A stretch of 64,000 nucleotides of DNA, from NCBI RefSeq assembly GCF_036507355.1, contig NZ_AP027877.1, one strand, 5' to 3'. Below, piece after piece: positions 3,358 through 45,114 of the stretch (position 1 is the stretch's first letter; each line of letters begins with the position of its first letter). This DNA comes from Escherichia coli (GTDB taxonomy: Bacteria; Pseudomonadota; Gammaproteobacteria; Enterobacterales; Enterobacteriaceae). The translations under genes were made by a program, and so were the position numbers. Below the pieces are notes generated by a model. The model saw nothing but the letters and a program-made list of their open reading frames with translations, did not search any database and was not told where the DNA came from.

Positions 3358-3601
3358 ATAACCTCCATGGTTTATCGAATCTTATGTTCGATTTGAACGT
3401 TATACGCTGGTTTATTTTGATACCGTTGATGAGATCAAAGATCGGGTGAATTGATTAAAAATAAGCCAGATGGACGTATGGGCAAGGATTATGGTTTTAT
3501 TTGTCATACAAATAAATATAATAGGCGCTTCCGATGTAGACCCGTATTCTTCGCCTGTACCACGGGTCGGTTTTAGTACAGGCGTTTTCTTTAAATATCC
3601 T

Positions 3602-4132
3602 TCAGGAACGTTTACGCGGCATCATGCGTAGAAGTGTGTTGTCCTTCCAGAAATAGTGGTGTGCCAGTGCAGCCGCAGCGTGCAACCCGATGACAAAATA
3701 TCCCAGATTCGCCAGCGTTTCATGCCACGACTTTAAGCTATCTACCCGTTCGAAATTGGCCTCTGAAGCGTAAGGCATCGTCAAACCAAACGCAAACCAC
3801 GGGTTGCCCCGGTTATACATCATCACCAAACCAATCACTGGCAGCGCAATAAACAGGAGATAAATCACCAAATGTCCCAAATGCGCCAGTCCCGTCATCA
3901 TCGGTTTCGGCTTAGGTATAATCGGCGGGGGTGGGTATTTCAGTCTTAACAAAAGACGAACCACCATCAGCACGAGAATTGAGATGCCACAGGAAACATG
4001 AATCATGTTGATGAGCGGCCGATCGCTACGTGGGAAGAAACCACGAAACTCCATTGCGCAATACGCTGCGATAACCAGCAAAAAGACCAGCCAGTGAATG
4101 CCGATTTGTAACCTTGAGTATTTATTTTCCAT
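3602..4132 (-). CDS. cybB: Cytochrome b561
   Basis: Four-TM protein with conserved His ligands; start placed at the internal ATG giving MENKYSRLQIGIHW… (the ORF track begins 12 codons upstream). Confidence 0.85.
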   Translation of the reverse strand: MENKYSRLQIGIHWLVFLLVIAAYCAMEFRGFFPRSDRPLINMIHVSCGISILVLMVVRLLLRLKYPPPPIIPKPKPMMTGLAHLGHLVIYLLFIALPVIGLVMMYNRGNPWFAFGLTMPYASEANFERVDSLKSWHETLANLGYFVIGLHAAAALAHHYFWKDNTLLRMMPRKRS

Positions 4133-4320
4133 AACATTTCCTGCTTTAACATAATTTTCCGTTAACATAACGGGCTTTTCTCAAAATTTCATTAAATATT
4201 GTTCGCCCGTTTTCAGTACGTTACGTTTCACTGTAAGAATGGAGATTGCCCATCCCACAATCCTGGTCTAAGCCTGGAAAGGATCAATTTTCATCCGAAC
4301 GTTCCTGACAGGAGAAAACC

Positions 4321-5322
4321 ATGAGTAAAGTTGGTATTAACGGTTTTGGTCGTATCGGTCGACTGGTGTTGCGTCGTTTACTTGAAGTCAAAAGCAACAT
4401 AGACGTTGTCGCTATTAATGATCTTACTTCCCCAAAAATTCTCGCCTATCTGCTGAAACATGATTCAAACTATGGTCCGTTCCCCTGGAGCGTTGATTTT
4501 ACGGAAGATTCACTTATCGTTGATGGGAAAAGTATCGCGATTTACGCCGAAAAAGAGGCTAAAAATATTCCGTGGAAAGCGAAAGGGGCAGAAATCATTG
4601 TCGAATGTACTGGCTTTTATACCTCCGCCGATAAATCGCAGGCGCATCTTGATGCTGGTGCGAAGAAGGTGTTGATTTCCGCTCCTGCCGGTGAAATGAA
4701 AACCATCGTTTATAACGTTAATGACGACACTCTGGATGGCAACGACACCATTGTTTCCGTGGCGTCATGCACCACTAACTGCCTTGCGCCGATGGCCAAA
4801 GCCTTGCATGACAGTTTCGGGATAGAAGTCGGCACGATGACGACCATTCATGCCTATACTGGCACCCAGTCACTGGTGAATGGCCCGCGTGGTAAAGATT
4901 TACGTGCTTCACGCGCAGCGGCAGAAAATATCATTCCCCACACTACGGGGGCGGCAAAAGCCATTGGTCTGGTGATCCCGGAACTGAGCGGCAAACTGAA
5001 AGGTCATGCGCAACGCGTGCCGGTGAAAACAGGTTCGGTCACTGAGCTGGTGTCCATTCTCGGAAAAAAAGTGACTGCCGAAGAGGTGAATAACGCACTT
5101 AAACAAGCAACCACCAATAACGAGTCATTTGGTTATACCGATGAAGAAATAGTCTCTTCCGATATCATTGGCAGCCATTTCGGTTCAGTGTTTGATGCCA
5201 CGCAAACGGAAATTACCGCCGTGGGCGATTTACAACTGGTGAAAACGGTCGCCTGGTACGATAACGAATATGGCTTCGTCACGCAGCTTATTCGCACCCT
5301 CGAAAAATTCGCTAAACTCTGA
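4321..5322 (+). CDS. gapC: Glyceraldehyde-3-phosphate dehydrogenase, apparently intact
   Basis: 333-aa uninterrupted ORF with NAD-binding [10 protein letters not shown] and catalytic [10 protein letters not shown] motifs. Confidence 0.85.
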
Positions 5323-5330
5323 CGCGCACA

Positions 5331-5360
5331 GGCGGAGGGAAAAAACCTCCGCCTCTTTCA
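5331..5360. terminator. Bidirectional stem-loop between convergent gapC and aldA
   Basis: ggcggaggg-aaaaaa-cctccgcc followed by a T-rich stretch, lying between the two stop codons. Confidence 0.55.
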
Positions 5361-5364
5361 CTCA

Positions 5365-6804
5365 TTAAGACTGTAAATAAACCACCTGGGTCTGCAGATA
5401 TTCATGCAGGCCATGTTTACCATCTGCGCCGCCAATACCGGATTTACGCCATCCGGCGTGGAAGCCTTGCATAGCTTCGAAGTTTTCACGATTGATGTAA
5501 GTTTCACCAAACTTCAGCCCTTTAATGGCTTTCATCGCGACGTTCAGATTTTGGGTATAGATTGATGAGGTCAGGCCGTAATCACTGTCATTAGCCATTG
5601 AGATAGCATCTTCCAGCGTGTCAAATGCGACTACCGGCAGAACCGGGCCAAAGGTTTCCTCATGCATAATCGACATTTCCTGGCGAACATCCAGCAGCAA
5701 TGTCGGCGGATAATAATATCCTTTCCCCTCTACCGCTTTGCCACCCAACGCCACTCTCGCCCCTTCTTCTACTGCGCGCGCCACTTTTTGCTCGACCCTT
5801 TCCAGCGCCGCGGCGTTAATCAACGGCCCCATCGCAATGTCGTTGCGTTCAGCGGGGTTACCAAATTGAACCGCCTGCATCGCTTCACCCAGCCGATTGA
5901 CGAACTGATCATAAATGCCTTTCTGTACATAAACACGTTCTGCACAGTTACACACTTGCCCACTATTAATGACGCGTGAATCAACGATGGCTTTGACTGC
6001 CAGTTCAAGATCGGCATCGTCCATTACGATAGCTGGTGCTTTACCCCCCAGTTCCAGGCACACTTTGGTGATGTTTTTCGCCGCAGTCGCCATGATCTTC
6101 TCACCTGCAGAGACGCTGCCTGTCATACTGACCATTGCGACCTTTGGGTTACCCGCCAGTTCTTGCCCAACGGTTTCACCACACCCCAGAACAAGGTTAA
6201 ACACGCCGCGCGGAAGGCCTATTTCATCGACGATTTTGGCGAATGCAATCGCATTGTTTGGCGTAAATTCACTGGGTTTAATGACAATGGTATTACCAGT
6301 CAAAAGAGCGGGAGCCATTTTGCGGGCAATGAGGAAGAACGGGAAGTTCCACGGCAGAATGCCGGTAGTCACACCAAGCGCACGTTTAAACAGAAGAATA
6401 TTTTCTCCTGGACGATCGCTTTGAATAATCTCGCCCTCGTAACGCCGTGCCCACTCCGCCATGTAATCGATATAGTCGGCAGTAAAAGCCACTTCGACTT
6501 CAGCCAGCTGCTGGATCTTGCCCCCTTCTTCAACAATCAGCGCACTGATTTCACTGGCGCGTTCGCGGATCCCGGCGGAGATTTTGCGCAACCAACTGGC
6601 GCGTTCAATAGCAGGCAACGCTTCCCATTCTGGTTGTGCACGTTCTGCTGCATCGATTGCCTTACGGGCATCCTCGGCCTGACCATCGGGTATGCGGGAA
6701 ATGACAGCCTCTGTAGCAGGGTTTACCACATCAATCCATGCGTCTCCACGCCAGGTAACAAACTGTCCATCGATATACATAGGATGTTGAACGGGTACTG
6801 ACAT
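5365..6804 (-). CDS. aldA: NAD-dependent aldehyde dehydrogenase (lactaldehyde dehydrogenase type)
   Basis: 479-aa ORF with ALDH family features (catalytic Cys region …GQVCNCAERVYVQ…); synteny. Confidence 0.9.
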   Translation of the reverse strand: MSVPVQHPMYIDGQFVTWRGDAWIDVVNPATEAVISRIPDGQAEDARKAIDAAERAQPEWEALPAIERASWLRKISAGIRERASEISALIVEEGGKIQQLAEVEVAFTADYIDYMAEWARRYEGEIIQSDRPGENILLFKRALGVTTGILPWNFPFFLIARKMAPALLTGNTIVIKPSEFTPNNAIAFAKIVDEIGLPRGVFNLVLGCGETVGQELAGNPKVAMVSMTGSVSAGEKIMATAAKNITKVCLELGGKAPAIVMDDADLELAVKAIVDSRVINSGQVCNCAERVYVQKGIYDQFVNRLGEAMQAVQFGNPAERNDIAMGPLINAAALERVEQKVARAVEEGARVALGGKAVEGKGYYYPPTLLLDVRQEMSIMHEETFGPVLPVVAFDTLEDAISMANDSDYGLTSSIYTQNLNVAMKAIKGLKFGETYINRENFEAMQGFHAGWRKSGIGGADGKHGLHEYLQTQVVYLQS

Positions 6805-18478: not shown

Positions 18479-19246
18479 GGTAATGACTCCAACTTATTGA
18501 TAGTGTTTTATGTTCAGATAATGCCCGATGACTTTGTCATGCAGCTCCACCGATTTTGAGAACGACAGCGACTTCCGTCCCAGCCGTGCCAGGTGCTGCC
18601 TCAGATTCAGGTTATGCCGCTCAATTCGCTGCGTATATCGCTTGCTGATTACGTGCAGCTTTCCCTTCAGGCGGGATTCATACAGCGGCCAGCCATCCGT
18701 CATCCATATCACCACGTCAAAGGGTGACAGCAGGCTCATAAGATGCCCCAGCGTCGCCATCGTGCGTTCACCGAATACGTGCGCAACAACCGTCTTCCGG
18801 AGCCTGTCATACGCGTAAAACAGCCAGCGCTGGCGCGATTTAGCCCCGACATAGCCCCACTGTTCGTCCATTTCCGCGCAGACGATGACGTCACTGCCCG
18901 GCTGTATGCGCGAGGTTACCGACTGCGGCCTGAGTTTTTTAAGTGACGTAAAATCGTGTTGAGGCCAACGCCCATAATGCGGGCTGTTGCCCGGCATCCA
19001 ACGCCATTCATGGCCATATCAATGATTTTCTGGTGCGTACCGGGTTGAGAAGCGGTGTAAGTGAACTGCAGTTGCCATGTTTTACGGCAGTGAGAGCAGA
19101 GATAGCGCTGATGTCCGGCGGTGCTTTTGCCGTTACGCACCACCCCGTCAGTAGCTGAACAGGAGGGACAGCTGATAGAAACAGAAGCCACTGGAGCACC
19201 TCAAAAACACCATCATACACTAAATCAGTAAGTTGGCAGCATCACC
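18479..19246 (-). mobile_element. insAB: IS1 (768 bp), copy 1, minus orientation; insA 18916..19191, insB' 18494..18997
   Basis: Both terminal inverted repeats recognised (GGTGATGCTGCCAACTTACTGAT… and …AAGTTGGAGTCATTACC); InsA/InsB ORFs; flanking 9-mers differ (attagatcg vs cacgtcggt), so no target-site duplication. Confidence 0.9.
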
Positions 19247-21479
19247 CACGTCGGTATCAGCCGTTTTGTTTGTGTTGCTAAATGCAATCGAACGGCTACT
19301 GTCAAGGTTGTGAACGTCATAACGCAATGCGTTATTCCAGTTCATGCCGTTGTCGAAGGACATCTGATGTTTCAGGCCAAAGAACTGGCTATAACCACCT
19401 GTGACGCCATTATCACCCGCTTTCTGCGCACCATCACCATCGAGACGAGCGATACCGTATTCCAGGCTCATGCTCTGGCTTTCGCTCAGGTCAACGGTTT
19501 TACGCAGTGCCAGCATGTCATACTCGGTGTTATTTCCGAGTTCCTCACGCGGGTCACCTTTCGCCACCACGTTAAAGGCCAGGCCATTGCCCACCTTCGG
19601 CGCGGCATCCGCCAGCATGCTGAAGCGGTTGCTTAACATACGCGCTTCACGGAATACCGTGGTCGCCTGGCTACCGCTCACCTGCTTCAGGGCGCTATTC
19701 AGTTCAGCAGTGGTGCCCACGTTCAGGCTGGTATACAGCTCGTTATTGGTGTAACCCGCATCCAGTGCCTTCGCCACATCGTTCACCGAAGCATCGGTCG
19801 CCACATCGGTGTAGGCGTTTTTGCTCATGATGACGTCAACGTTGCCGCTGGCATCGGTGCTGCCTTTGGCGGTCCATACCACGGACGTTGAGGTGATGGC
19901 ATCGGCGTCGGTCAGGTTGATGCCTTCCACCACGTTGTCGAAACTGACCGTGGTGTCTGCCGTACCGGCGGCGAAACCGGTGTTGATCCCGACACCATTC
20001 ATGCTGGCGTTGTTGACCTTCAGTTTACCGGCGCTGCCGTCAACGTTGGTACCGACGATATAGCCGTTGAGGTTGTTACTGCTGCCATCGCTACTACCGC
20101 TATCAGTCGTTTCACTGAAAGGTGAAGTGGTGTAAGTGTTTGGCATGTCCGGCAACGTGTAGTCGGTGTAATGCACTTCGGTATTGTTACCGCTGTTGCC
20201 GTTCACCCCTTCCACATTCACGCTGTCGCCCTGCTTAATCAACCCCGAACCAGTCACGCCGTCGGCAATCACCACCGTACCGTTGTTAACGATATGACCT
20301 TCTGTGCCCAGTACGCTGAACGCAAACGAGTCGTTAGCAAAAATATTGATCGTGCCGTTGTTCTCAATTACCGCATCGGCGGTGGCATTGGCATCCAGTT
20401 GCATACCAGTCAATCCGGTATCGGTGGTGCCTTCGGTACCGAGATTGATAACACCGTTGTTAACCAGCTGTGCGTTTTTATCGCCTTCCATCGCCACGGC
20501 GTTGTTGCCGCTGATGTTCATTACACCATCGTTGAGAGCAACATAGTTGTTGTGGGTGAATTTAACCGCGCTGGCGTTGTCTTTATCGAAGTTAATTACC
20601 CCGCCATCCTGGTTCCACAAGAAGGCATCGCTTTCTGTCGCACCGGCAGTACTTACCGCCACGGTGACTTTCGCATCCACCACGCCCTTGTTAATAAACT
20701 GGCTGGCGCCATCGTCATAGTGAATAGCGCCCGCACCTAATGCGGCATCCAGCGTCATTTCACCGGTGTTATATAACGTGGCGTTAGCATTGCTGCCCTG
20801 GAAGCGAATGGCGTTTTTGCTGTTATCAAGGATGAGTTTGCCGCTGTTGTTGAACGTTGACTTATCGTCAATATCCAGCGTCCCGGCATTGTTGTTTTCA
20901 TCCTGATAACCCATTTTCCAGGTACCCGCGTTATTCACTACCGCAGAGTTATAGAGAATCGCGCCTTTACGCGCCTCGCCGCCTGCAAGGTTATTGAATA
21001 CCGCATCGCCCTGAGCGTTAACGCGCGCCGACGCAATACCGCTGTTATTCACCGTACCATCGTGAAGTTGTAAAGTTGACAGGGAACCGGTGTTATTAAT
21101 TACCGCGTTGCTGTTTTTCTCAATTTTTACGACGTCATTAAGCGTTCCGTTGTTATTGAAGGTCCCTCCTTCCAAAGTCACCGTGTTCAATACACCTTCA
21201 TTGGTTAACGCACCGCCTGCATTCACGACGATGGCTGAGCTAATGGTTCCGCTCGACTCGTTAACCAGCGCACCATTTTCGAGTATCCTGATCGTTCCAT
21301 TTTTAACAGCACCCGCACTGGTGACATCCCCGTTGATAATCGCACCAGACGATAATAATACGGTCTCACCCGCAGAACTTAATACATCGCCATCATCATA
21401 CAAATCGGCGATATAATTATCCGTCGGATTATATTCATCGGCCCCCTGGCAAACCCCAAAGGTACAAATGGTGCCATAG
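19247..21479 (-). pseudogene. ydbA: Internal fragment of autotransporter adhesin passenger domain (ydbA-like)
   Basis: Asn/Gly/Thr-rich beta-helix-type repeats (…NNGTLN…VNNSG…). The apparent start (TTG) and last 8 codons (GDAANLLI*) are encoded by IS1 ends, so this is not an intact gene. Confidence 0.7.
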
Positions 21480-22247
21480 GGTGATGCTGCCAACTTACTG
21501 ATTTAGTGTATGATGGTGTTTTTGAGGTGCTCCAGTGGCTTCTGTTTCTATCAGCTGTCCCTCCTGTTCAGCTACTGACGGGGTGGTGCGTAACGGCAAA
21601 AGCACCGCCGGACATCAGCGCTATCTCTGCTCTCACTGCCGTAAAACATGGCAACTGCAGTTCACTTACACCGCTTCTCAACCCGGTACGCACCAGAAAA
21701 TCATTGATATGGCCATGAATGGCGTTGGATGCCGGGCAACAGCCCGCATTATGGGCGTTGGCCTCAACACGATTTTACGTCACTTAAAAAACTCAGGCCG
21801 CAGTCGGTAACCTCGCGCATACAGCCGGGCAGTGACGTCATCGTCTGCGCGGAAATGGACGAACAGTGGGGCTATGTCGGGGCTAAATCGCGCCAGCGCT
21901 GGCTGTTTTACGCGTATGACAGGCTCCGGAAGACGGTTGTTGCGCACGTATTCGGTGAACGCACGATGGCGACGCTGGGGCGTCTTATGAGCCTGCTGTC
22001 ACCCTTTGACGTGGTGATATGGATGACGGATGGCTGGCCGCTGTATGAATCCCGCCTGAAGGGAAAGCTGCACGTAATCAGCAAGCGATATACGCAGCGA
22101 ATTGAGCGGCATAACCTGAATCTGAGGCAGCACCTGGCACGGCTGGGACGGAAGTCGCTGTCGTTCTCAAAATCGGTGGAGCTGCATGACAAAGTCATCG
22201 GGCATTATCTGAACATAAAACACTATCAATAAGTTGGAGTCATTACC
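21480..22247 (+). mobile_element. insAB: IS1 (768 bp), copy 2, plus orientation; insA 21535..21810, insB' 21729..22232
   Basis: Terminal IRs at both ends; flanking 9-mers differ (gtgccatag vs ctggactta); inverted relative to copy 1. Confidence 0.9.
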
Positions 22248-22357
22248 CTGGACTTACGTGTTTTTTCGGTTGAGTCGGGTATTGAAGTATCCGCAGCCCA
22301 TGTCTGGCTACTTAACGCCATGGCAACACAAACAGACAATAATTTTTTCCTTTGCAT
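22248..22357 (-). pseudogene. ydbA: 5' end of autotransporter gene (signal peptide) cut by IS1
   Basis: Minus-strand ATG at 22355-22357 gives MQRKKLLSVCVAMALSSQTWAADTSIPDSTEKT… (signal peptide) and runs into IS1 copy 2 after about 36 codons. Confidence 0.55.
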
Positions 22358-22764
22358 ATAAAATTCCTTAGATCTAGACCGTGCGTAACAAGCCATGCAG
22401 AATTTGAAGATAAATCGTAGTAAATATTCATAGTGAAATAAGCAATAAAGAAATGCTTATATAATTCACAAAATCAATATTAAAATCAGGCAAGTAAAAG
22501 CATACAAAAAAACAGTTGATGGAATTATATTCCACAAAAAACTCACTTCAATCTAAAAATTAACGACAAAAAACAAAAACACACTAATAATTCATTGACG
22601 CTGCATATATATTTTGTGATTACATATATATTGGTAATGATTTGTTATTTAAGGGAAGGATATATAAGGTTTTTGTAGAAATATCCACGGTAATTAAGCA
22701 TGCTAACGTCAGTTTAAATACTGTAAAAGATCATTAATAGATACATTTTGTAGCCAACTATAAT

Positions 22765-23091
22765 TTATTTGCGCAACCATTTACCATTAATTCCCTGAAC
22801 ATATTGCCCCGACTTCGCGCGAGCAACAAGCTTTTGTCCAGCCAGTTTGGCTATCTCTTTAGTGGATACATTATTTTGCTTTGCCAGTTGTTGGTAACTA
22901 TGGTTACGAGCTTCATTAATATCTTTTACTAATGCCTGTGTTTCGGCATCCGTTTGTAGCGCCACCAGGTAACCGTTAAGCGTTTCACCTACCCGCCCCT
23001 GACTTCTGGCTTCGTTCAGGGTTAAAGCCATTGCACTGTCGCTCATCAGGCCAATGGCCCATACAGCTATGAGTAATGTTCTTTTCATCAT
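22765..23091 (-). CDS. ydbL: DUF1318-family periplasmic protein
   Basis: Start chosen at the internal Met giving a 108-aa signal-peptide protein (MKRTLLIAVWAIGLMSDSAMA…); last gene of ydbH-ynbE-ydbL. Confidence 0.7.
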   Translation of the reverse strand: MMKRTLLIAVWAIGLMSDSAMALTLNEARSQGRVGETLNGYLVALQTDAETQALVKDINEARNHSYQQLAKQNNVSTKEIAKLAGQKLVARAKSGQYVQGINGKWLRK

Positions 23092-23095
23092 CACC

Positions 23096-23281
23096 TCAAA
23101 ATAGATCGCTACGGGTTTTGAGCAGGTCTTCAACGTCCTTATCCGCTTTAATGATGATTTCATGCTCAATTTTAACGTTCATATTAATGGTGATTGGCTC
23201 TTTCGGCGCAGCCACTTCAATGCGAGGCGTGCAACCAACCAACATAAAAGAGGACGCAAACGCGGCTATCACTATTTTCAT
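23096..23281 (-). CDS. ynbE: Small lipoprotein
   Basis: 61-aa ORF with lipobox (…FMLVGC…); overlaps the ydbH stop by 4 nt. Confidence 0.75.
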   Translation of the reverse strand: MKIVIAAFASSFMLVGCTPRIEVAAPKEPITINMNVKIEHEIIIKADKDVEDLLKTRSDLF

Positions 23282-25917
23282 TGTTTTTCCTCACACTCTT
23301 TTCCTGATGGGCAGCCAGTTTCCGGTAGCTGGGCATTCTGCTCCAGCCATACCTGGAGATTATCGCCAAAGCGTAAACTGCGCCATAACGTAAAAATATT
23401 CTCTTCATGGTGATAATTAAGGTTTACCGTACCGCTTTTACCATCGACGCGACTGGTGCCCGAAATGTTGGCCTGCATGGTTAACACACCGAGATTATCT
23501 AAATTAATCCTTGTTGATGAGCGACTGATTTCCATATAACGCAACCAGTTGATGGCAGTTCCAGCGGTCATATTGTCTTTGGCCACCGCATCTGCAGTGT
23601 CTTTATCCAGACGCAGCGTCATCGGCCCCGCGTTTGCCAACCAGCCATCTTTGACAATCCATTTTTCATTGTTCAGCCATAGTGGCAAGGCCCCACTGAA
23701 TGCCCCAGACATGGCGAATTGTTTCGGATTGACGGCGCTAACCAGTTCGCTGGATGAGAGATTATTCAGCCGCAACAGCGCCGGGTCATGTTGCGGCATA
23801 CGTAATTGTTTCATCAGCACGTTACCGCCTAACACATCGACGCTAACATCAGTCAACAGCAATGGTTCTTCTTCAGTCCACGGATAACGCCCTTGCAAAT
23901 CAGCCGTAATATTTTTCGCTGTCACCAGATTAATCACTTCGGCAATTCGCAACGTAACGGGGCCGCGAGTCCCAAGATGCCAGGCTCCATCGGCAAAACG
24001 GAAAGGCAGGACAAAATCGACACCGTTAACCTGATTATCTGGCATCCAGGCACTACCGCCTTTCAACACGCCGTGCCCTCCCGCGCGGAATCCTTGTTCA
24101 GGCGCAGCAGAAAATGCAACCTGAGCATACAGTTCACCATCGCGTAAGTTCATCTTCCAGTCGGGTGGCACCAGCGGCTGGAATACAGTCAGTGATTGTT
24201 TAGGCCACCAGGCGTTACCGCGCAGACGAATACCGTCCCAGCGACCATTTACCCGAACCGGGCCAATCTCACCAGCATGTAAATCGCCTTTAAAGAGGAA
24301 ATACGTCGGATCGCGCCCATCGACGCTAAATTTTAAGGTTGATGGCGGTAACACACTGCCGCCAGTGAACAGCGTTTGCCCGGCGTCCAGTGACAGCGCG
24401 CCGCTGAAGGAGGGATGCTGTGCGTCACGTACCCAGACGACGGGCTTGTCGAGAATTAATCGCGGCTTTTCTACCGTCATCGTACCGTATTGTAGCTGGT
24501 CGAAACCGGTGGAGAGATCGGTCAGCGTAATCGTGCTGTCATGCCACTCACCTTTTCCTGCGACATCCCAGGTGGCATTCATCGGTGTAAAACTCCCTTT
24601 TCCCCAGTAGCGCCACTGCCAGCGGCCAGCGTCAGGGAGAAAATCATTCGCCAGCCCATCCATATGCAGCACGAAATCGCCCAGTTCATTTTCATGCGCC
24701 TGCAAAATGGCCTGCAAACGTCCGTCAACACCACGTTGGGTGACTTTTACACCCGCTAAAGGCCAGCGGATTTCATCGATGTCCAGCGAATCGATGACTC
24801 TTCCCTTTGAACGAAGTAACGCGCCTGGCTCAAAGGTCAGCGTTGGGTCAGACAGACTTCCACTTACCTGCGCAGGTAAACGGGCATATAAAATGAGGTC
24901 CGCCTGTTTCGCTTCACCGGTCAGCTGCAGAGGCAGCTGGCTGTTATCCATGCTTAATTTTCCTGGGCCAAAATTAAGCACCGCGTTGCCCTTACCCGCT
25001 TGCCCCTGGGTCAGCACACTCAGTCGTCCGCTGACCAGAGCGTTCTCAAGCCCTGCCTGCCAGTTGTCGACTTTGACACCCAGTCGGCCACTCAAAGGAA
25101 AACCTGCATACGGCCAGCTCCAGCGACCATCGCTTACGGTCAATTGTTGACGCGTAATTTGCCACGGCAAATCGAGCAACGGATCGCCGTTATCCCGTGC
25201 CAGCACGATCAATTGCCCGCTATTTTCCTGCCAGTCCAGCTCTGCATCCACCAGTGACGGTTCCTGCGGCAAGTTTAACGTCGCAGTAGCATGCCCACTT
25301 ACAGGAAGTCCATCCGGCACGAGCGGCATAGTAAATTCCCCCACCAGTTTAACCGGCGGCTGATTTTCAAACGCGACGACATCCAGCTCGCTGACTGTAA
25401 GTTGTTGCCCTTTCAGCTGGCCTTGAAATTTAACTTTTTCGCCCTGATAACGCAGTTGCTGGATATCAGAGGTTAATGCGAGAGAGAGTTTTCCCTGCCA
25501 TTCCTGCCAGGGAGAAAAAATCAGTTTATCGATATTGATCCAGGTGTTAGGCAGCATGGACTGCCACTGCGCGAGGGTTTTTGGAGCAGCTGGCGATTGC
25601 TCCGTCTGCGGCAATTTCGCCAGACAAGCAGAATCAAGTTCTACCGTGCCGACGTTCAATAACCAGCGGCTGGGATGTGAAAGGCTGGCGTTGGTGATAT
25701 GCGCAAGCTGACAATCTCCCACCAGATAACGGAGATCGGGAATGATTAAACCTTTACGCGTAATGCGTGGGCTTTCATCTAATGCAATACGTGTCCCGAG
25801 CGGTAGCCAGATGCCCGCCAGCGTGGGAACCCACAGCCCGAGCGTCATCAGCAGCGTCAACGGCACAAGAATAATCAGTAATAACAGCGCGAGAACGGCT
25901 TTATATTTACCCAGCAT
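23278..25917 (-). CDS. ydbH: AsmA-like large envelope protein
   Basis: 879-aa ORF with N-terminal TM anchor; operon with ynbE and ydbL. Confidence 0.8.
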   Translation of the reverse strand: MLGKYKAVLALLLLIILVPLTLLMTLGLWVPTLAGIWLPLGTRIALDESPRITRKGLIIPDLRYLVGDCQLAHITNASLSHPSRWLLNVGTVELDSACLAKLPQTEQSPAAPKTLAQWQSMLPNTWINIDKLIFSPWQEWQGKLSLALTSDIQQLRYQGEKVKFQGQLKGQQLTVSELDVVAFENQPPVKLVGEFTMPLVPDGLPVSGHATATLNLPQEPSLVDAELDWQENSGQLIVLARDNGDPLLDLPWQITRQQLTVSDGRWSWPYAGFPLSGRLGVKVDNWQAGLENALVSGRLSVLTQGQAGKGNAVLNFGPGKLSMDNSQLPLQLTGEAKQADLILYARLPAQVSGSLSDPTLTFEPGALLRSKGRVIDSLDIDEIRWPLAGVKVTQRGVDGRLQAILQAHENELGDFVLHMDGLANDFLPDAGRWQWRYWGKGSFTPMNATWDVAGKGEWHDSTITLTDLSTGFDQLQYGTMTVEKPRLILDKPVVWVRDAQHPSFSGALSLDAGQTLFTGGSVLPPSTLKFSVDGRDPTYFLFKGDLHAGEIGPVRVNGRWDGIRLRGNAWWPKQSLTVFQPLVPPDWKMNLRDGELYAQVAFSAAPEQGFRAGGHGVLKGGSAWMPDNQVNGVDFVLPFRFADGAWHLGTRGPVTLRIAEVINLVTAKNITADLQGRYPWTEEEPLLLTDVSVDVLGGNVLMKQLRMPQHDPALLRLNNLSSSELVSAVNPKQFAMSGAFSGALPLWLNNEKWIVKDGWLANAGPMTLRLDKDTADAVAKDNMTAGTAINWLRYMEISRSSTRINLDNLGVLTMQANISGTSRVDGKSGTVNLNYHHEENIFTLWRSLRFGDNLQVWLEQNAQLPETGCPSGKECEEKQ

Positions 25918-35737: not shown

Positions 35738-36238
35738 TTAGCCGCCATTGTCACCAAGAAAATCCCCGCCCTGCGACATAGCGATGGAAAGAGCAGGTAT
35801 TGATTCGTAGTACGCCAGCATTTCAGAAAGGATCGCATCCAGTTTCCTTATCGGAAAATAGGCCTGGTCATAGTTGCGATCCACCCGAAACTGGAACTCG
35901 TGATAATCATCATCGAGCTGAATGAAGTATTTACACCCGACCAGTTTTGCCTGGTCGAAACAGGCATTACGGGCGTAAAAAATTGAGCGGCGGTCACAGA
36001 AATTATCGGCTTCGTCAAAACGACTGGCGATATCGGCTTTGGAAAACACCAGCACCTGTTCACCAAATTCAGCCATGTACTGATGCCGTGTCTTATCTTC
36101 ATCATCAACAACGATAAAAATTTTCCCGGTATAGCCAGCACGACGCAACGTCCGGTAAGTCAGAACTTTGTCCGGTCGCCCGTGAGTCAGAATAAAGGCG
36201 CAAAAATCATCACGCATATTCCTCCTCCTCACCACCAT
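35738..36238 (-). CDS. Prophage hypothetical protein (ydaY-like); possible nucleotide-sugar transferase-like N-terminal fold
   Basis: 166-aa ORF overlapping the upstream gene by 29 nt; motifs …IFIVVDDED… and …QLDDDY… resemble GT-A/DxD signatures (eyeball inference); abuts the tail-fibre deletion junction. Confidence 0.45.
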
Positions 36239-37001
36239 GCATGATCTCCACCATGCGCTGCGTCATCCGGACAAATCCATTTTCAATAGCCTGCTGATAA
36301 TCAATGATCACCAGCGCCGACTCCTCGAAAAAACACTGAATTTCAGCGGGGGCGTGAGCGTAATAGTCCGCAATTCTGCTGAAATTAAACACCGTGTGAC
36401 GTTCTGCCGCACACAGGAGGAATTTCTCAATATCAGGCTCAAGGGACGCCGAACGTATCCGGCTGATCAGCTCCTGAGTTTTCGTATCGTCGTACAGTTC
36501 ACTGATATCCGGTTTACCGCCCGACGGCTCATAAACAGGCGTATCAATTTTCGTCGTATACGGCTCCTCCTCATTTCCTGTACCGGGCAAAACATCCGTC
36601 AACAGTTCATCAATTTCTGTCGGGATGAAGCCTGTCAGGGAGACATCAAAATCAGCATTGATTAGGTCCGACAGCTCCATCCGCAACAGATCTTCATCCC
36701 AGCCAGCATTCATCGGCAGGCGATTATCTGCCAGGCGGTACGCCTTTTTCTGCTCATCCGTCAGGCCAGACAGAACAATGACCGGAACAGAATCCATTTT
36801 GAGCATTTCAGCCGCCATAACACGACCGTGACCCGCAATAATTTCGCCCTTTTCGTCAATCAGCACCGGATTAGTCCAGCCGAATTGCTTAATACTTTCT
36901 ACCAGTTGTGCCACCTGCTCAGTACTGTGCGTCCTGGCGTTGTGCGCATACGGTGACAATTCTTGTAATGGGCGATAGACTATCTTTAATTTCTCGCTCA
37001 T
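36210..37001 (-). CDS. ParB-like nuclease (ParB N-terminal) domain protein, prophage-encoded (ynaK-like)
   Basis: 263-aa ORF; N-terminus …YRPLQELSPYAHNARTH…LVESIKQFGWTNPVLID…IIAGHGRVMAA…VPVIVL…AYRLADNRL matches the ParB/Srx-fold signature. Confidence 0.6.
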   Translation of the reverse strand: MSEKLKIVYRPLQELSPYAHNARTHSTEQVAQLVESIKQFGWTNPVLIDEKGEIIAGHGRVMAAEMLKMDSVPVIVLSGLTDEQKKAYRLADNRLPMNAGWDEDLLRMELSDLINADFDVSLTGFIPTEIDELLTDVLPGTGNEEEPYTTKIDTPVYEPSGGKPDISELYDDTKTQELISRIRSASLEPDIEKFLLCAAERHTVFNFSRIADYYAHAPAEIQCFFEESALVIIDYQQAIENGFVRMTQRMVEIMHGGEEEEYA

Positions 37002-37138
37002 ACAGCCTTGCTTTATGAATAAAACGCACCCCAGCAGCCAGTGCTACTGGGGACGGAGGTGTTGCTGGTAAAGTTAGGTATTGGATCAATGAGTGAGTCA
37101 ACATAATATTAAACTCACAATTATAAATCAGCCATATA

Positions 37139-38596
37139 TTAGGAGCGCCAAAAAAAACCTGAAAACAATATAATAACAGGATAAATTTCAAGGCGACCAA
37201 GAATCATAGCTATGCACATTAAACATTTTGCAATGTCATTAAGCACTCCGAATGACGATGCAGTAGCCCCAAAACCTAATCCCATATTATTAATACATGC
37301 AGCCACTGTTGCAAATGATGTAAGAAAATCATATCCCATACCATTTAACACCAGTATAAAAAACACCGTGAAGAGAGTATAAAGAAAAAAGAAACTCCAT
37401 ACAGACCTCATTACACGATCTGTAACTATCTTCCCTCCTACATTTACACTCAACAACGCTCTGGGATGAGAAAGCTGATTTATCTCGTGTTTGCTTTGTT
37501 TGAAAAGTATAAGAAATCGAAGTGACTTAATTCCACCACAAGTTGAACCTATACATCCCCCAAAGAAACTTGACAACAGCAAAAACACTATCGTGTGCGT
37601 GGGCCAACTTGCATAATCCTGCGTAGCTAAACCATTATCAGTGAGCATGGAGCTGGCAAGAAAAAACGAATGAATAAAACTTCCATGCAAGTCATACATA
37701 CCTATATGCCAGACCTGGAAAGAGGTAACAATGATCACCCCTAAGGCTATTAACAGAAAGAAACGAAGTTCAATATCTCTGATTAAAGGTTTTATCGTTT
37801 TCCTGCTAATAACAATATACCAAAGAGTGAAGTTGAAAGCCGATAGCAGGGAAAAAGAACCAGCCACCAGCTCAACCAAATAGTTATTAAAATATCCGAT
37901 ACTCTCGCTATGAGTTGAGAAACCACCAAGCGAAACTGTGGAAATCCCGTGACAAATAGCATCAAACAAAGGCATTCCTGCAAGTCTATAACAGACAATA
38001 CAAGCAATACCTAATAAAGAATAAGTTATCCACAGTGTCCGTGACGTATCGGCCAGGCGGGGAGTGAGTTTGTCATCCTTAAATGGCCCCGGCATTTCTG
38101 ACTGATAAAGCTTTGCACCACCAATACCCAATAATGGCAATACAGCAACCGCCAGAACAATAACTCCTAAACCACCTATAAAATTTAACTGTGACCGATA
38201 GTACAAATATGCCCGAGGTAATGAACTAACATCATCAATTACAGTTGCTCCTGTTGTTGTTATTCCAGAAACCCCTTCAAACAGAGCATCAATGAACGTT
38301 AAATTAAGTTCTGAGTCAATCCATAAAGGGAATGCACTAATAACAGAAAACAAAATCCAAAACATTACAATTATAATAAACCCATCACGGGTACGTAATT
38401 GAATGCCAGATTTCTTAGTTGTATACCACGCTCCGCCACCAATGCAAAAAAATATAACGAAAGTTATAAAGAAAACGAACAGGCTTTTTTCTTTATAAAA
38501 CAATGCTACAACCATTGGTGGCAACATTGAAAGACTATAGAGCCAAACCAGGAACCCACACATATGAGTAACAACTCTTACATGAGATGTATTCAT
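37139..38596 (-). CDS. trkG: Trk-system potassium uptake protein (prophage cargo)
   Basis: 485-aa multi-TM TrkH/TrkG-family ORF from the internal ATG (MNTSHVRVVTH…). Confidence 0.8.
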   Translation of the reverse strand: MNTSHVRVVTHMCGFLVWLYSLSMLPPMVVALFYKEKSLFVFFITFVIFFCIGGGAWYTTKKSGIQLRTRDGFIIIVMFWILFSVISAFPLWIDSELNLTFIDALFEGVSGITTTGATVIDDVSSLPRAYLYYRSQLNFIGGLGVIVLAVAVLPLLGIGGAKLYQSEMPGPFKDDKLTPRLADTSRTLWITYSLLGIACIVCYRLAGMPLFDAICHGISTVSLGGFSTHSESIGYFNNYLVELVAGSFSLLSAFNFTLWYIVISRKTIKPLIRDIELRFFLLIALGVIIVTSFQVWHIGMYDLHGSFIHSFFLASSMLTDNGLATQDYASWPTHTIVFLLLSSFFGGCIGSTCGGIKSLRFLILFKQSKHEINQLSHPRALLSVNVGGKIVTDRVMRSVWSFFFLYTLFTVFFILVLNGMGYDFLTSFATVAACINNMGLGFGATASSFGVLNDIAKCLMCIAMILGRLEIYPVIILFSGFFWRS

Positions 38597-38733
38597 ATCT
38601 AAATATTCTTTCAATTATAACCACCTTGCTGCAATATTATGATTATACTGTATAAAATTTAACTCCTCTTAGATCTTACTTCACTGTTCCTTATGAAACA
38701 ATCATCAAAATGAATCATATTGTAGTTAAGATT

Positions 38734-38862
38734 TTACTTTAAACACTGCTCGGTTATGTATTGCTGAGCACCTTCAAGTTGGGCCTGCATCATTACCAGT
38801 CGTTCCCGGAGGGTGAAATAATCCCGTTCAGCGGTGTCTGCCAGTCGGGGGGAGGCTGCATT
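38734..38862 (-). pseudogene. rzpR: 3' ends of phage lysis genes Rz/Rz1 (rzpR/rzoR-like), 5' parts replaced by IS3
   Basis: Minus-strand translation …ADTAERDYFTLRERLVMMQAQLEGAQQYITEQCLK*, with an embedded +1-frame proline-rich Rz1 tail (…QPPPDWQTPLNGIISPSGNDW*). Confidence 0.65.
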
Positions 38863-40120
38863 TGATCCTACCCACGTAATATGGACACAGGCCTAAGCGA
38901 GGTTCTGGTTTTCAAATTGTTCCGGACTGAGGCCGCCACACCAACTGTGCCGCCGCCACCGATTGTAATCACATTCGATATAATTAAACACCGTTGCCCG
39001 CATTATTTCCCGGCTGATAAAGTGTTCTCCATGGATACATTCCACTTTCAGCGAATGAAAGAAGCTTTCCACGCAGGCATTATCGTAGCAGCAACCTTTT
39101 GCGCTCATACTTCCACGCAGATTATGCCGCTTCAGTTGCGCCTGATAATCTGCTGAACAGTACTGGCCTCCACGGTCCGTGTGAACGATAACGTTCCGGG
39201 GCCTCTTACGCCGCCACAGCGCCATCTGCAGGGCATCGCAGGCCAGTTGCGCCGTCATGCGTGGCGACATTGACCAGCCAATAACGGCACGTGACCACAG
39301 GTCAATGACCACTGCCAGATACAGCCAGCCTTCATCTGTACGTAAGTACGTGATGTCTCCTGCCCACTTCTGGTTCGGGCCACTGGCGTAAAAATCCTGC
39401 TCCAACAGATTTTCTGACACAGGCAGGCCGTGTGCGCGGTAGCTGACCGGGCTGAACTTCCGGGAGGCCTTTGCCCTCAGTCCCTGACGGCGCAGGCTTG
39501 CCGCCACGGTTTTTACGTTAAAGGGGTAACCCTGAGCACGCAGTTCATCCGTCAGGCGTGGGGCACCGTAACGCTGTTTTGACCGGGTAAAAGCCGCGAG
39601 GACAACGCTGTCGCAGTGTTGGCGGAACTGCTGACGCGTGCTTATCCTTGTCCGCCGCTGACACCACGTATACCAGCCGCTGCGGGCCACCCGGAGCACG
39701 CGGCACATTGCTTTGATGCTGAACTCAGCCTGATGTTTTTCAATAAAGACATACTTCATTTCAGGCGCTTCGCGAAGTATGTCGCGGCCTTTTGGAGGAT
39801 AGCCAGCTCTTCATCCCGTTCTGCCAGCTGGCGTTTGAGACGTGCAATCTCGGTAGACATCTCCAGTTCACGTTCAGAAGACGTCTGCTGATTTTGCTGT
39901 TTACTGCGCCAGTTGTAGAGCTGTGATTCATACAGGCTGAGTTCACGGGCTGCGGCAGTAACACCGATGCGTTCAGCAAGCTTCAGGGCTTCACTGCGAA
40001 ATTCAGGCGAATGCTGTTTACGGGGTTTTTTACTGGTTGATACTGTTTTTGTCATGTGAGTCACCTCTGACTGAGAGTTTACTCACTTAGCCGCGTGTCC
40101 ACTATTGCTGGGTAAGATCA
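38863..40120 (-). mobile_element. insEF: IS3 (1258 bp); insE/orfA 39756..40055, insF/orfB 38893..39759
   Basis: Terminal IRs TGATCCTACCCACGTAATATGGACAC… and …GTGTCCACTATTGCTGGGTAAGATCA; orfA/orfB transposase pair; flanking triplets differ, so no 3-bp target duplication. Confidence 0.9.
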
Positions 40121-40270
40121 CCGGACGCAACTGAACATCATCAGGACACGCAGCCGCTGGATGCTCAGTCACAGGTAAATTCTGTTGATGCGAAATATCA
40201 GGAACTGCGGGCAGAACTCCATGAAGCCCGGAAAAACATTCCATCAAAAAATCCTGTCGATGCCGATAAA

Positions 40271-41500
40271 TTGCTTGCTGCATCACGTGGTGAATTTGTT
40301 GACGGAATTAGCGACCCGAACGATCCGAAATGGGTAAAGGGGATCCAGACTCGCGATTGTGTGTACCAGAACCAGCCAGAAACGGAAAAAACCAGCCCAG
40401 ATATGAATCAACCTGAGCCAGTAGTGCAACAGGAACCGGAAATAGCCTGCAATGCCTGCGGCCAGACTGGCGGGGATAACTGCCCTGACTGTGGTGCGGT
40501 GATGGGCGACGCAACATACCAGGAAACATTCGATGAAGAGAGTCAGGTTGAAGCTAAGGAAAATGATCCGGAGGAAATGGAAGGCGCTGAACATCCGCAC
40601 AATGAGAATGCTGGCAGCGATCCGCATCGCGATTGCAGTGATGAAACTGGCGAAGTCGCAGATCCCGTAATCGTAGAAGACATAGAGCCAGGTATTTATT
40701 ACGGAATTTCGAATGAGAATTACCACGCGGGTCCCGGTATCAGTAAGTCTCAGCTCGATGACATTGCTGATACTCCGGCACTATATTTGTGGCGTAAAAA
40801 TGCCCCCGTGGACACCACAAAGACAAAAACGCTCGATTTAGGAACTGCTTTCCACTGCCGGGTACTTGAACCGGAAGAATTCAGTAACCGCTTTATCGTA
40901 GCACCTGAATTTAACCGCCGTACAAACGCCGGAAAAGAAGAAGAGAAAGCGTTTCTGATGGAATGCGCAAGCACAGGAAAAACGGTTATCACTGCGGAAG
41001 AAGGCCGGAAAATTGAACTCATGTATCAAAGCGTTATGGCTTTGCCGCTGGGGCAATGGCTTGTTGAAAGCGCCGGACACGCTGAATCATCAATTTACTG
41101 GGAAGATCCTGAAACAGGAATTTTGTGTCGGTGCCGTCCGGACAAAATTATCCCTGAATTTCACTGGATCATGGACGTGAAAACTACGGCGGATATTCAA
41201 CGATTCAAAACCGCTTATTACGACTACCGCTATCACGTTCAGGATGCATTCTACAGTGACGGTTATGAAGCACAGTTTGGAGTGCAGCCAACTTTCGTTT
41301 TTCTGGTTGCCAGCACAACTATTGAATGCGGACGTTATCCGGTTGAAATTTTCATGATGGGCGAAGAAGCAAAACTGGCAGGTCAACAGGAATATCACCG
41401 CAATCTGCGAACCCTGTCTGACTGCCTGAATACCGATGAATGGCCAGCTATTAAGACATTATCACTGCCCCGCTGGGCTAAGGAATATGCAAATGACTAA
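40271..41500 (+). CDS. recE: Exonuclease VIII (RecE) C-terminal portion, N-terminal part of gene missing
   Basis: 409-aa ORF ending …[12 protein letters not shown] just upstream of recT and beginning shortly after the IS3 end; contains the nuclease-domain region. Confidence 0.7.
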
Positions 41501-42302
41501 GCAACCACCAATCGCAAAAGCCGATCTGCAAAAAACTCAGGGAAACCGTGCACCAGCAGCAGTTAAAAATAGCGACGTGATTAGTTTTATTAACCAGCCA
41601 TCAATGAAAGAGCAACTGGCAGCAGCTCTTCCACGCCATATGACGGCTGAACGTATGATCCGTATCGCCACCACAGAAATTCGTAAAGTTCCGGCGTTAG
41701 GAAACTGTGACACTATGAGTTTTGTCAGTGCGATCGTACAGTGTTCACAGCTCGGACTTGAGCCAGGTAGCGCCCTCGGTCATGCATATTTACTGCCTTT
41801 TGGTAATAAAAACGAAAAGAGCGGTAAAAAGAACGTTCAGCTAATCATTGGCTATCGCGGCATGATTGATCTGGCTCGCCGTTCTGGTCAAATCGCCAGC
41901 CTGTCAGCCCGTGTTGTCCGTGAAGGTGACGAGTTTAGCTTCGAATTTGGCCTTGATGAAAAGTTAATACACCGCCCGGGAGAAAACGAAGATGCCCCGG
42001 TTACCCACGTCTATGCTGTCGCAAGACTGAAAGACGGAGGTACTCAGTTTGAAGTTATGACGCGCAAACAGATTGAGCTGGTGCGCAGCCTGAGTAAAGC
42101 TGGTAATAACGGGCCGTGGGTAACTCACTGGGAAGAAATGGCAAAGAAAACGGCTATTCGTCGCCTGTTCAAATATCTGCCCGTATCAATTGAGATCCAG
42201 CGTGCAGTATCAATGGATGAAAAGGAACCACTGACAATCGATCCTGCAGATTCCTCTGTATTAACCGGGGAATACAGTGTAATCGATAATTCAGAGGAAT
42301 AA
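41493..42302 (+). CDS. recT: Single-strand annealing recombinase RecT
   Basis: 269-aa ORF from the internal ATG ([29 protein letters not shown]…), overlapping the recE stop. Confidence 0.85.
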
Positions 42303-42346
42303 TTCAGCCTGGCGGTGTAATGCACCGCCAACTTGAAATATTTTTT

Positions 42347-43330
42347 ATGAGAAAAATTATGAGATATGACAATGTTGGTGATGCTGCCAACTTACTGATT
42401 TAGTGTATGATGGTGTTTTTGAGGTGCTCCAGTGGCTTCTGTTTCTATCAGCTGTCCCTCCTGTTCAGCTACTGACGGGGTGGTGCGTAACGGCAAAAGC
42501 ACCGCCGGACATCAGCGCTATCTCTGCTCTCACTGCCGTAAAACATGGCAACTGCAGTTCACTTACACCGCTTCTCAACCCGGTACGCACCAGAAAATCA
42601 TTGATATGGCCATGAATGGCGTTGGATGCCGGGCAACAGCCCGCATTATGGGCATTGGCCTCAACACGATTTTACGTCACTTAAAAAACTCAGGCCGCAG
42701 TCGGTAACCTCGCGCATACAGCCGGGCAGTGACGTCATCGTCTGCGCGGAAATGGACGAACAGTGGGGCTATGTCGGGGCTAAATCGCGCCAGCGCTGGC
42801 TGTTTTACGCGTATGACAGGCTCCGGAAGACGGTTGTTGCGCACGTATTCGGTGAACGCACGATGGCGACGCTGGGGCGTCTTATGAGCCTGCTGTCACC
42901 CTTTGACGTGGTGATATGGATGACGGATGGCTGGCCGCTGTATGAATCCCGCCTGAAGGGAAAGCTGCACGTAATCAGCAAGCGATATACGCAGCGAATT
43001 GAGCGGCATAACCTGAATCTGAGGCAGCACCTGGCACGGCTGGGACGGAAGTCGCTGTCGTTCTCAAAATCGGTGGAGCTGCATGACAAAGTCATCGGGC
43101 ATTATCTGAACATAAAACACTATCAATAAGTTGGAGTCATTACCGACAATGTTAAACCATGTCCATTTTGTGGTTGTCCATCAGTAACGGTGAAAGCCAT
43201 TTCAGGATATTACCGAGCGAAGTGTAACGGATGCGAATCCCGAACCGGTTATGGTGGAAGTGAAAAAGAAGCACTCGAAAGATGGAATAAACGAACCACT
43301 GGAAATAATAATGGAGGTGTTCATGTATAA
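42347..43330 (+). pseudogene. ralR: lar/ralR (restriction alleviation; type I TA toxin) interrupted by IS1
   Basis: 5' codons (MRKIMRYDNV) at 42347..42376 and the remainder (…KPCPFCGCPSVTVKAISGYYRAKCNGCESRTGYGGSEKEALERWNKRTTGNNNGGVHV*) at 43145..43330, separated by IS1 with a duplicated GACAATGTT. Confidence 0.7.
42377..43144 (+). mobile_element. insAB: IS1 (768 bp), copy 3, simple insertion; insA 42432..42707, insB' 42626..43129
   Basis: Terminal IRs present; perfect 9-bp target-site duplication GACAATGTT at 42368..42376 and 43145..43153. Confidence 0.9.
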
Positions 43331-43532
43331 AATTACCGCCACTATTGAAAAGGAAGGTGGCACTCCTACTAACTGGACAAGATATTCAAAATCTAAACTA
43401 ACGAAATCAGAATGCGAAAAAATGCTCTCAGGTAAAAAAGAAGCAGGCGTTTCCAGAGAGCAGAAAGTAAAACTGATAAATTTTAATTGCGAGAAACTTC
43501 AGTCCTCGAGAATTGCATTGTATTCAAATTAA
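43323..43532 (+). CDS. ydaC: Small prophage protein
   Basis: 69-aa ORF MYKITATIEKEGGTPTNWTRYSKSK… whose start overlaps the lar stop; symbol from position between lar and xisR. Confidence 0.6.
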   Translation: MYKITATIEKEGGTPTNWTRYSKSKLTKSECEKMLSGKKEAGVSREQKVKLINFNCEKLQSSRIALYSN

Positions 43533-43610
43533 AACTTCATAGCTGATTATTAATAATCAACATCGGGCGTCAATTTCAGTCTAACATTGGCGCCTGCCAG
43601 AGGTGATGCG

Positions 43611-43826
43611 ATGGCACAAGTAATCTTTAATGAAGAGTGGATGGTTGAATACGGCCTGATGCTTCGCACTGGTCTGGGGGCCAGACAAATTGAAGCATAC
43701 CGCCAGAACTGTTGGGTGGAGGGCTTCCACTTCAAACGAGTATCTCCTTTAGGTAAGCCAGACAGCAAACGAGGGATTATCTGGTACAACTATCCAAAGA
43801 TAAATCAGTTTATCAAAGACTCATGA
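43611..43826 (+). CDS. xisR: Prophage excisionase
   Basis: 71-aa ORF from the internal ATG ([17 protein letters not shown]…) immediately upstream of the integrase. Confidence 0.7.
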
Positions 43827-43827
43827 T

Positions 43828-45063: not shown

Positions 45064-45114
45064 TTGCAAAGTTTGCCCCCAATTTGCCCCATTTAGTACC
45101 AGGGAACTGAAATA

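Follow-up and report, generated by a model that had tools for sequence, protein, structure and literature searches.

gapC is intact in the window examined here, by which we mean the whole 64,000-nucleotide stretch of Escherichia coli DNA (contig NZ_AP027877.1) that was analyzed. With a probability of about 85%, we regard the window gene as an ordinary chromosomal E. coli gapC, the break of this gene in K-12 as a lineage polymorphism, and the rare substitution D187N in the window protein as likelier to weaken the enzyme than to abolish it. This substitution was missed by the initial annotation of the region and, as a rare allele, is the sole unusual aspect of the window gapC.

The coding sequence of gapC (333 codons and a stop; 4321..5322, + strand) was delineated by ORF, HMM, and alignment evidence, and the ORF listing of the window gives it as a single unbroken reading frame with an ATG start and one terminal stop. 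The whole protein scores 442.2 bits against the HMM of type I glyceraldehyde-3-phosphate dehydrogenase (GAPDH; TIGR01534, curated NCBI cut-off 367.2 bits), with residues 3-325 aligned to positions 1-330 of the 330 in the profile. The Pfam domains Gp_dh_N (PF00044, 122.5 bits) and Gp_dh_C (PF02800, 190.9 bits) are each matched over their full length, and the product has the two-domain architecture of type I GAPDH, with an NAD-binding and a C-terminal catalytic domain. The Rossmann GxGxxG motif for NAD binding is found as GFGRIGR at residues 8-14 (4342..4362, + strand), whose G10 and G13 do not vary within the family, together with the acidic Asp34 for NAD+. The catalytic Cys150 (codon TGC, 4768..4770, + strand) is located in SCTTNC and the catalytic His177 is encoded by CAT (4849..4851, + strand), each being retained in 98 of 99 family representatives. 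Also present are Thr180, Arg198, and Arg232 (within QRVPV), the first two of which are kept in 98 of the 99 representatives; we take these phosphate-site residues to be Thr179, Arg195, and Arg231 in B. stearothermophilus numbering. The claim of the initial annotation that the ORF encodes a full 333-aa GAPDH with NAD-binding and catalytic-Cys motifs is therefore borne out. Membership in type I GAPDH by score holds despite Asn187, as the invariant Asp at this position is a conserved feature of the family and no formal criterion of it.

The MG1655 annotation lists gapC (b4493) as a pseudogene of 1001 bp flanked by aldA and cybB. Base-by-base alignment of the window and K-12 genes yielded 22 differences (97.8% DNA identity) and located two lesions in K-12: a nonsense mutation, K39* (AAA to TAA, window 4435), and the loss of 1 bp in a run of seven A at codon 248 (window 5064-5070). 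K-12 gapC also carries R18G. Neither lesion is present in the window copy, where codon 39 is AAA (Lys; 4435..4437, + strand, by alignment to K-12) and the run spanning codons 248-250 (5064..5070, + strand) is A7, in contrast to the A6 that shifts the frame in K-12. The alignment thus agrees with the initial annotation on the absence of a frameshift and shows no premature stop in the window copy either, and the statement of that annotation that gapC is split in K-12 proved correct, since b4493 is annotated as a pseudogene and both the nonsense mutation and the frameshift were found.

The frequency of these lesions was determined among complete E. coli genomes by short exact-allele queries with the diagnostic base inside the aligned part. 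A 41-mer carrying the K-12 nonsense mutation matched exactly in 1152 of 5417 genomes, and a 44-mer carrying the K-12 frameshift in 1043 of 5413. Exact-allele counts were used because record length (spans of 1299 versus 1300 bp) is an unreliable cue for frameshifts; two such records, H33 and H36, have an intact gene and an intergenic indel. The K-12 lesions thus occur in approximately 19-21% of complete E. coli genomes and about four fifths are without them, which makes K-12 atypical at gapC. Exact matches to the nonsense 41-mer include an ETEC strain from a pig and one clinical isolate, and in E. coli 720632 (human stool, Pakistan) gapC is annotated as “frameshifted; internal stop”. K39* and the -1 frameshift co-occur in natural human and pig isolates and are no laboratory artefact, and their presence in natural isolates qualifies the literature statement that “laboratory strains accumulate mutations in gapC”. 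For annotation, caution is warranted in using K-12 as the reference at gapC, as its lesions are a natural polymorphism found in about 20% of complete genomes. Two independent IS1 events were also observed at this locus. In SCPM-O-B-7615, an IS1-associated deletion has left an IS1 in place of the 3' four fifths of gapC together with the end of aldA, and in NCTC10537 an IS1 lies between cybB and an intact gapC, upstream of the latter, where it probably affects the promoter.

The initial annotation had further suggested that a second functional GAPDH may be expressed in this lineage. The gene is indeed intact, it is broken in K-12, and a protein identical to it at 330 of 333 residues is active; as a trait of the lineage, however, the suggestion fails, because the K-12 lesions are confined to the 1152 and 1043 genomes counted above. 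That an intact, expressed second GAPDH sets this particular lineage apart is highly improbable, even though the contrast between an intact gene in the window and a broken one in the reference K-12 would favor it: the population counts, with approximately 80% of complete E. coli genomes free of the K-12 lesions, refute it, and intact alleles are seen in E. coli genomes of human, dog, chicken, and baboon origin. The same conclusion is reached from the literature. Two papers that cite Espinosa-Urgel and Kolter date the description of the intact gene to 1998 and report gapC to be intact in environmental isolates, truncated by mutation in laboratory strains, and preferentially expressed in fresh water, where it is considered adaptive (PMC2949598, PMC1796617), and the gene has been employed in qPCR as an E. 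coli species marker (PMC10614358). A functional second GAPDH outside K-12 is established knowledge, and an intact gapC such as that of the window is already known. The intact gene therefore carries little weight for biology at large, since it is the norm in E. coli and the enzyme has already been purified and crystallized.

Intact gapC is maintained by selection. In alleles with 95-97% DNA identity, carried by strains from a patient, a dog, and a chicken and by a Japanese isolate, gapC is annotated as an intact gene of 1002 nt. Across seven intact alleles, dS reaches 0.19 and dN/dS stays at 0.01-0.08, which indicates strong purifying selection on the intact gene. It is scarcely conceivable, accordingly, that the open frame is a chance survivor of a gene no longer selected anywhere in E. 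coli. The dispensability of gapC in K-12 and its loss in several lineages would be in keeping with such a survival, but neither the low dN/dS over this range of dS nor a 1002-nt frame that is still open in alleles diverging by 5% in DNA would be.

An open frame without stop or frameshift is not the same as a functional gene, however, and the window copy is substituted at a family-invariant residue. Compared with the commonest E. coli allele, window GapC differs at two residues, V74I and D187N, and compared with the protein of PDB 7C5F (EcGAPDH1) it differs by V74I, E104D, and D187N, for a full-length identity of 330/333. Codon 74 is ATT (Ile; 4540..4542, + strand), where seven other E. coli alleles compared have Val and the family column is variable. 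Codon 187, in the S-loop, is AAT (Asn; 4879..4881, + strand), where the other GAPDHs examined have Asp (GAT); we take this residue to be Asp186 in B. stearothermophilus numbering. Asp187 was found in all 99 diverse type I GAPDHs in an alignment of full-length representatives, which were retrieved by searching 1.84 billion cluster representatives in a library clustered at 50% identity. Only three columns of this alignment are invariant, namely Gly10, Gly13, and Asp187, whereas even the catalytic Cys and His stand at 98/99. Alignment of 150 hits by hmmalign likewise placed Asp in this column in 148, the exceptions being one gap and one apparent misalignment by one column. GapA also has the Asp, in V-D-G-P, and reversion of N187 to D adds 4.4 bits to the family profile score.

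The D187N allele is rare. An exact match to the window 41-mer around the AAT codon was found in 0 of 5414 complete E. coli genomes, although a genome with AAT and a second nearby SNP would escape this query, and the 41-mer had no match among GTDB species-representative genomes. The common allele is carried by at least 1000 contigs, the exact window GapC protein by only 5-8. This protein is also encoded, in DNA with 99.96-99.97% identity to the window, on contigs of an NCBI assembly and of a Logan run, two sources independent of each other, and D187N is thus no sequencing error. The nearest allele, from strain PapRG-06-5, is separated from the window gapC by two synonymous and two non-synonymous changes; this ratio is suggestive of relaxed selection on the branch, but the counts are far too few to show it. 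Because D187N affects a family-invariant residue, “functional” is a less certain description of gapC here than in a typical E. coli.

The consequences of D187N may be considered from its position in the S-loop, where the conserved Pro189 follows two residues later. In the GAPDH of A. vaginae, the S-loop Pro forms one wall of the adenine-ribose pocket for the NAD of the R-axis-related subunit (PMC5385343). For the equivalent of Asp186 itself, a literature search yielded general statements only, to the effect that the S-loop lines the R-axis groove and that a nearby Pro is in the NAD pocket of the neighbor. The S-loop packs against the neighboring subunit and its NAD pocket, and the substitution would be likelier to weaken the enzyme, through tetramer packing, NAD handling, or stability, than to abolish its activity. 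Roitel et al. are said to have reported in 2002 that Asp186 of the B. stearothermophilus GAPDH makes a hydrogen bond with Ser48 of the neighboring subunit at the R-axis interface, and that D186G alone reportedly left the enzyme tetrameric, whereas D186G/E276G gave inactive dimers. In our alignment, 98 of 99 sequences have Ser or Thr in the column of the partner Ser48, which fits such a hydrogen bond.

Given the absolute conservation of the Asp, D187N could be inactivating. The gene would then be a missense pseudogene of this lineage, in which the frame is intact and the function cryptically lost because D187N inactivates the enzyme or destabilizes the tetramer; this would be another independent loss of gapC beside the K-12 lesions and the IS1-mediated deletion. 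We regard such a loss as possible but doubtful. It would be in line with the place of Asp187 among only three invariant columns, the cost of 4.4 bits against the family profile, the great rarity of the allele, the repeated loss of gapC in E. coli, the reported R-axis bond with its conserved partner column, and the two non-synonymous against two synonymous changes on the terminal branch, compared with a dN/dS of approximately 0.03 elsewhere. On the other hand, Asn is an isosteric replacement for Asp that still offers a hydrogen-bond acceptor, the single D186G mutant reportedly remained tetrameric, and the allele persists in several independent samples. Moreover, the window gapC has no second lesion, and its promoter region, Shine-Dalgarno sequence, and all catalytic residues are unchanged. 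As Asn thus resembles Asp in shape and in the ability to accept a hydrogen bond, we judge the Asn187 enzyme more likely to be weakened but active than dead, and, Asn being chemically near to Asp, it may even be fully active. If the enzyme is crippled, the lineage would be one that is losing gapC by missense, and this natural mutant could show why the Asp is never replaced. The D187N allele is, in either case, a ready natural variant for probing the role of the invariant S-loop Asp.

The genomic setting of gapC is that of its orthologues. By sequence, the window GapC falls in the same 90% cluster as the common E. coli allele, from which it is two residues apart, and by position the gene lies between cybB (3602..4132, - strand), its divergent upstream neighbor in conserved synteny, and aldA (5365..6804, - strand), its convergent downstream neighbor. 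Of 5426 complete E. coli genomes, 5417 contain a 1.3-kb region covering the locus, and the order is invariably cybB, gap, aldA. Five of the 5438 matches to the gapC region are on plasmid-labeled records, which are probably mislabeled chromosomal pieces. All of the K-12 genes from trg through ynbA have intact counterparts in the window, so the region is not in general decay. Upstream of cybB and gapC, the window also contains intact hokB and mokB, the sok antitoxin RNA of hokB/mokB (2817-2968, + strand, 104.9 bits), and the sRNA RydC (3528-3591, + strand, 92.5 bits), both RNAs at the Rfam gathering level.

Several signals around the gene bear on its expression, which for the window allele itself is inferred. 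A Shine-Dalgarno sequence read from the sequence, AGGAG (4310..4314, + strand), is located 6 nt before the ATG and is the same in K-12. The divergent cybB-gapC intergenic region (188 bp, 4133..4320) is the presumed site of the gapC promoter and is identical to K-12 at 183 of 188 positions; a sigma-70 consensus scan of 3500-5500 found 2 sites where 2.7 would be expected, with no excess over shuffles. In K-12, a sigma-S ChIP-seq peak has been assigned to gapC/cybB (PMC4447067), and in K-12 derivatives gapC RNA is rpoS-dependent and induced by slow growth (PMC2759082). Downstream, gapC and aldA converge with 42 bp between their stops, and this gap contains a GC-rich, terminator-like hairpin of 9 bp, found by folding (5330..5354; GGCGGAGGG / CCUCCGCCU), with a folding energy of -19.1 kcal/mol and a z-score of -4.5, and 0 of 200 shuffles were equally stable. 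This hairpin is absent from the output of a consensus terminator scan, and its T-tail is weak as read from the sequence. Its loop (5346-5351) is one base off K-12 (GAAAAAA versus AAAAAA), a second homopolymer-length polymorphism beside the A7/A6 difference within the gene. As gapC converges on aldA and a strong hairpin lies in the gap between them, gapC is monocistronic and is not in an operon, nor co-transcribed, with aldA. The proximity of aldA, which the initial annotation had mentioned, consequently has no functional meaning: the two genes converge on a common hairpin, and adjacency implies no co-expression.

The wider window belongs to a lineage without a complete genome in the RefSeq E. 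coli set, as its identity to complete RefSeq E. coli genomes is at most 98.3-98.7% over 25 kb; against K-12 it is 97.6% over 18.5 kb. An IS1 copy of 768 bp (18479-19246) with typical inverted-repeat ends truncates ydbD at approximately codon 470. It adjoins an ORF (19220-21493) that is a C-terminal remnant of the ydbA/BigA autotransporter and is 85% identical to K-12 ydbA. No pdxI is present beside this IS1 copy, and ydbD and ydbA have lost their 5' parts, in what looks like an IS1-mediated deletion. The approximately 20-kb cluster feaB-tynA-paaZ-paaA..K-paaXY, found between ydbH and ydbA in K-12, has no match anywhere in the window, and the lineage therefore has neither the phenylacetate nor the amine oxidase genes at the ydbA-ydbH junction (about 21500-23300). 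A reduced Rac-like prophage remnant spans approximately 36000-45100. It includes a trkG-like transporter (37139-38614), an IS3-family transposase (38893-39759), RecE with only its C-terminal 409 aa (40271-41500), RecT (41436-42302), and a tyrosine integrase adjoining ttcA (43828-45063).

The window gapC product is a type I GAPDH and is predicted to be NAD-dependent and phosphorylating, an activity carried over from the near-identical EcGAPDH1. By analogy with the EcGAPDH1 structures, the Cys150 thiolate, activated by His177, would attack glyceraldehyde-3-phosphate; a hydride would then pass to NAD+ as the thiohemiacetal becomes the thioacyl enzyme, and phosphate would cleave this intermediate to release 1,3-bisphosphoglycerate. 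A GAPDH-like enzyme of another role, such as an erythrose-4-phosphate dehydrogenase, an ArsJ-coupled GAPDH, or an NADP-dependent gluconeogenic GAPDH, is most improbable. Paralogues with such roles occur in the family, and K-12 transcript studies describe the locus as rpoS-dependent and place it with gluconeogenic genes (PMC2759082), which would lend this reading slight favor. However, the generic type I model is the only GAPDH model whose cut-off is passed: the score against the Epd (GapB) erythrose-4-phosphate dehydrogenase models is 273-277 bits for cut-offs of 530-539, that against the ArsJ-associated GAPDH model is 303 bits for a cut-off of 450, and the scores against several clade-specific GAPDH models are far under theirs. 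No arsJ is located near gapC in the window, and the NAD-specificity determinants Asp34 and Pro189 are both present. Moreover, EcGAPDH1 oxidizes glyceraldehyde-3-phosphate with NAD+ (PMC8615399).

Among characterized systems, EcGAPDH1 (PDB 7C5F and the 7C5G-7C7K series) is the closest to the window GapC, with the same Cys150 and His177, NAD-binding residues, and phosphate sites, but neither it nor the seven other E. coli alleles compared have D187N. EcGAPDH1 is an active NAD-dependent GAPDH with a KM for glyceraldehyde-3-phosphate of 0.73 mM, and its C150A mutant has no activity while that of H177A is approximately 8000-fold lower (PMC8615399). The corresponding UniProt entry for O157:H7 GapC is P58072 (cited in PMC10614358). 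The gapC locus of K-12 (b4493, formerly gapC_1/gapC_2, b1416/b1417) is orthologous and shares the Shine-Dalgarno sequence and 183 of the 188 upstream positions, but differs in its K39*, codon-248 deletion, and R18G, none of which the window gene has. Among the top 60 PDB matches to GapC, the best ones below the E. coli entries are chains named merely GAPDH, including the 3K73/3LVF series, presumably staphylococcal GAPDHs, and 1GD1, which we take to be that of B. stearothermophilus; we recognized no solved E. coli GapA chain among these 60. Epd belongs to the same superfamily, although the window GapC is not a member of it. GapA, the housekeeping glycolytic GAPDH of E. coli, has the same fold, domains, and catalytic residues as GapC, but is only 45% identical to it and is encoded at a separate locus.
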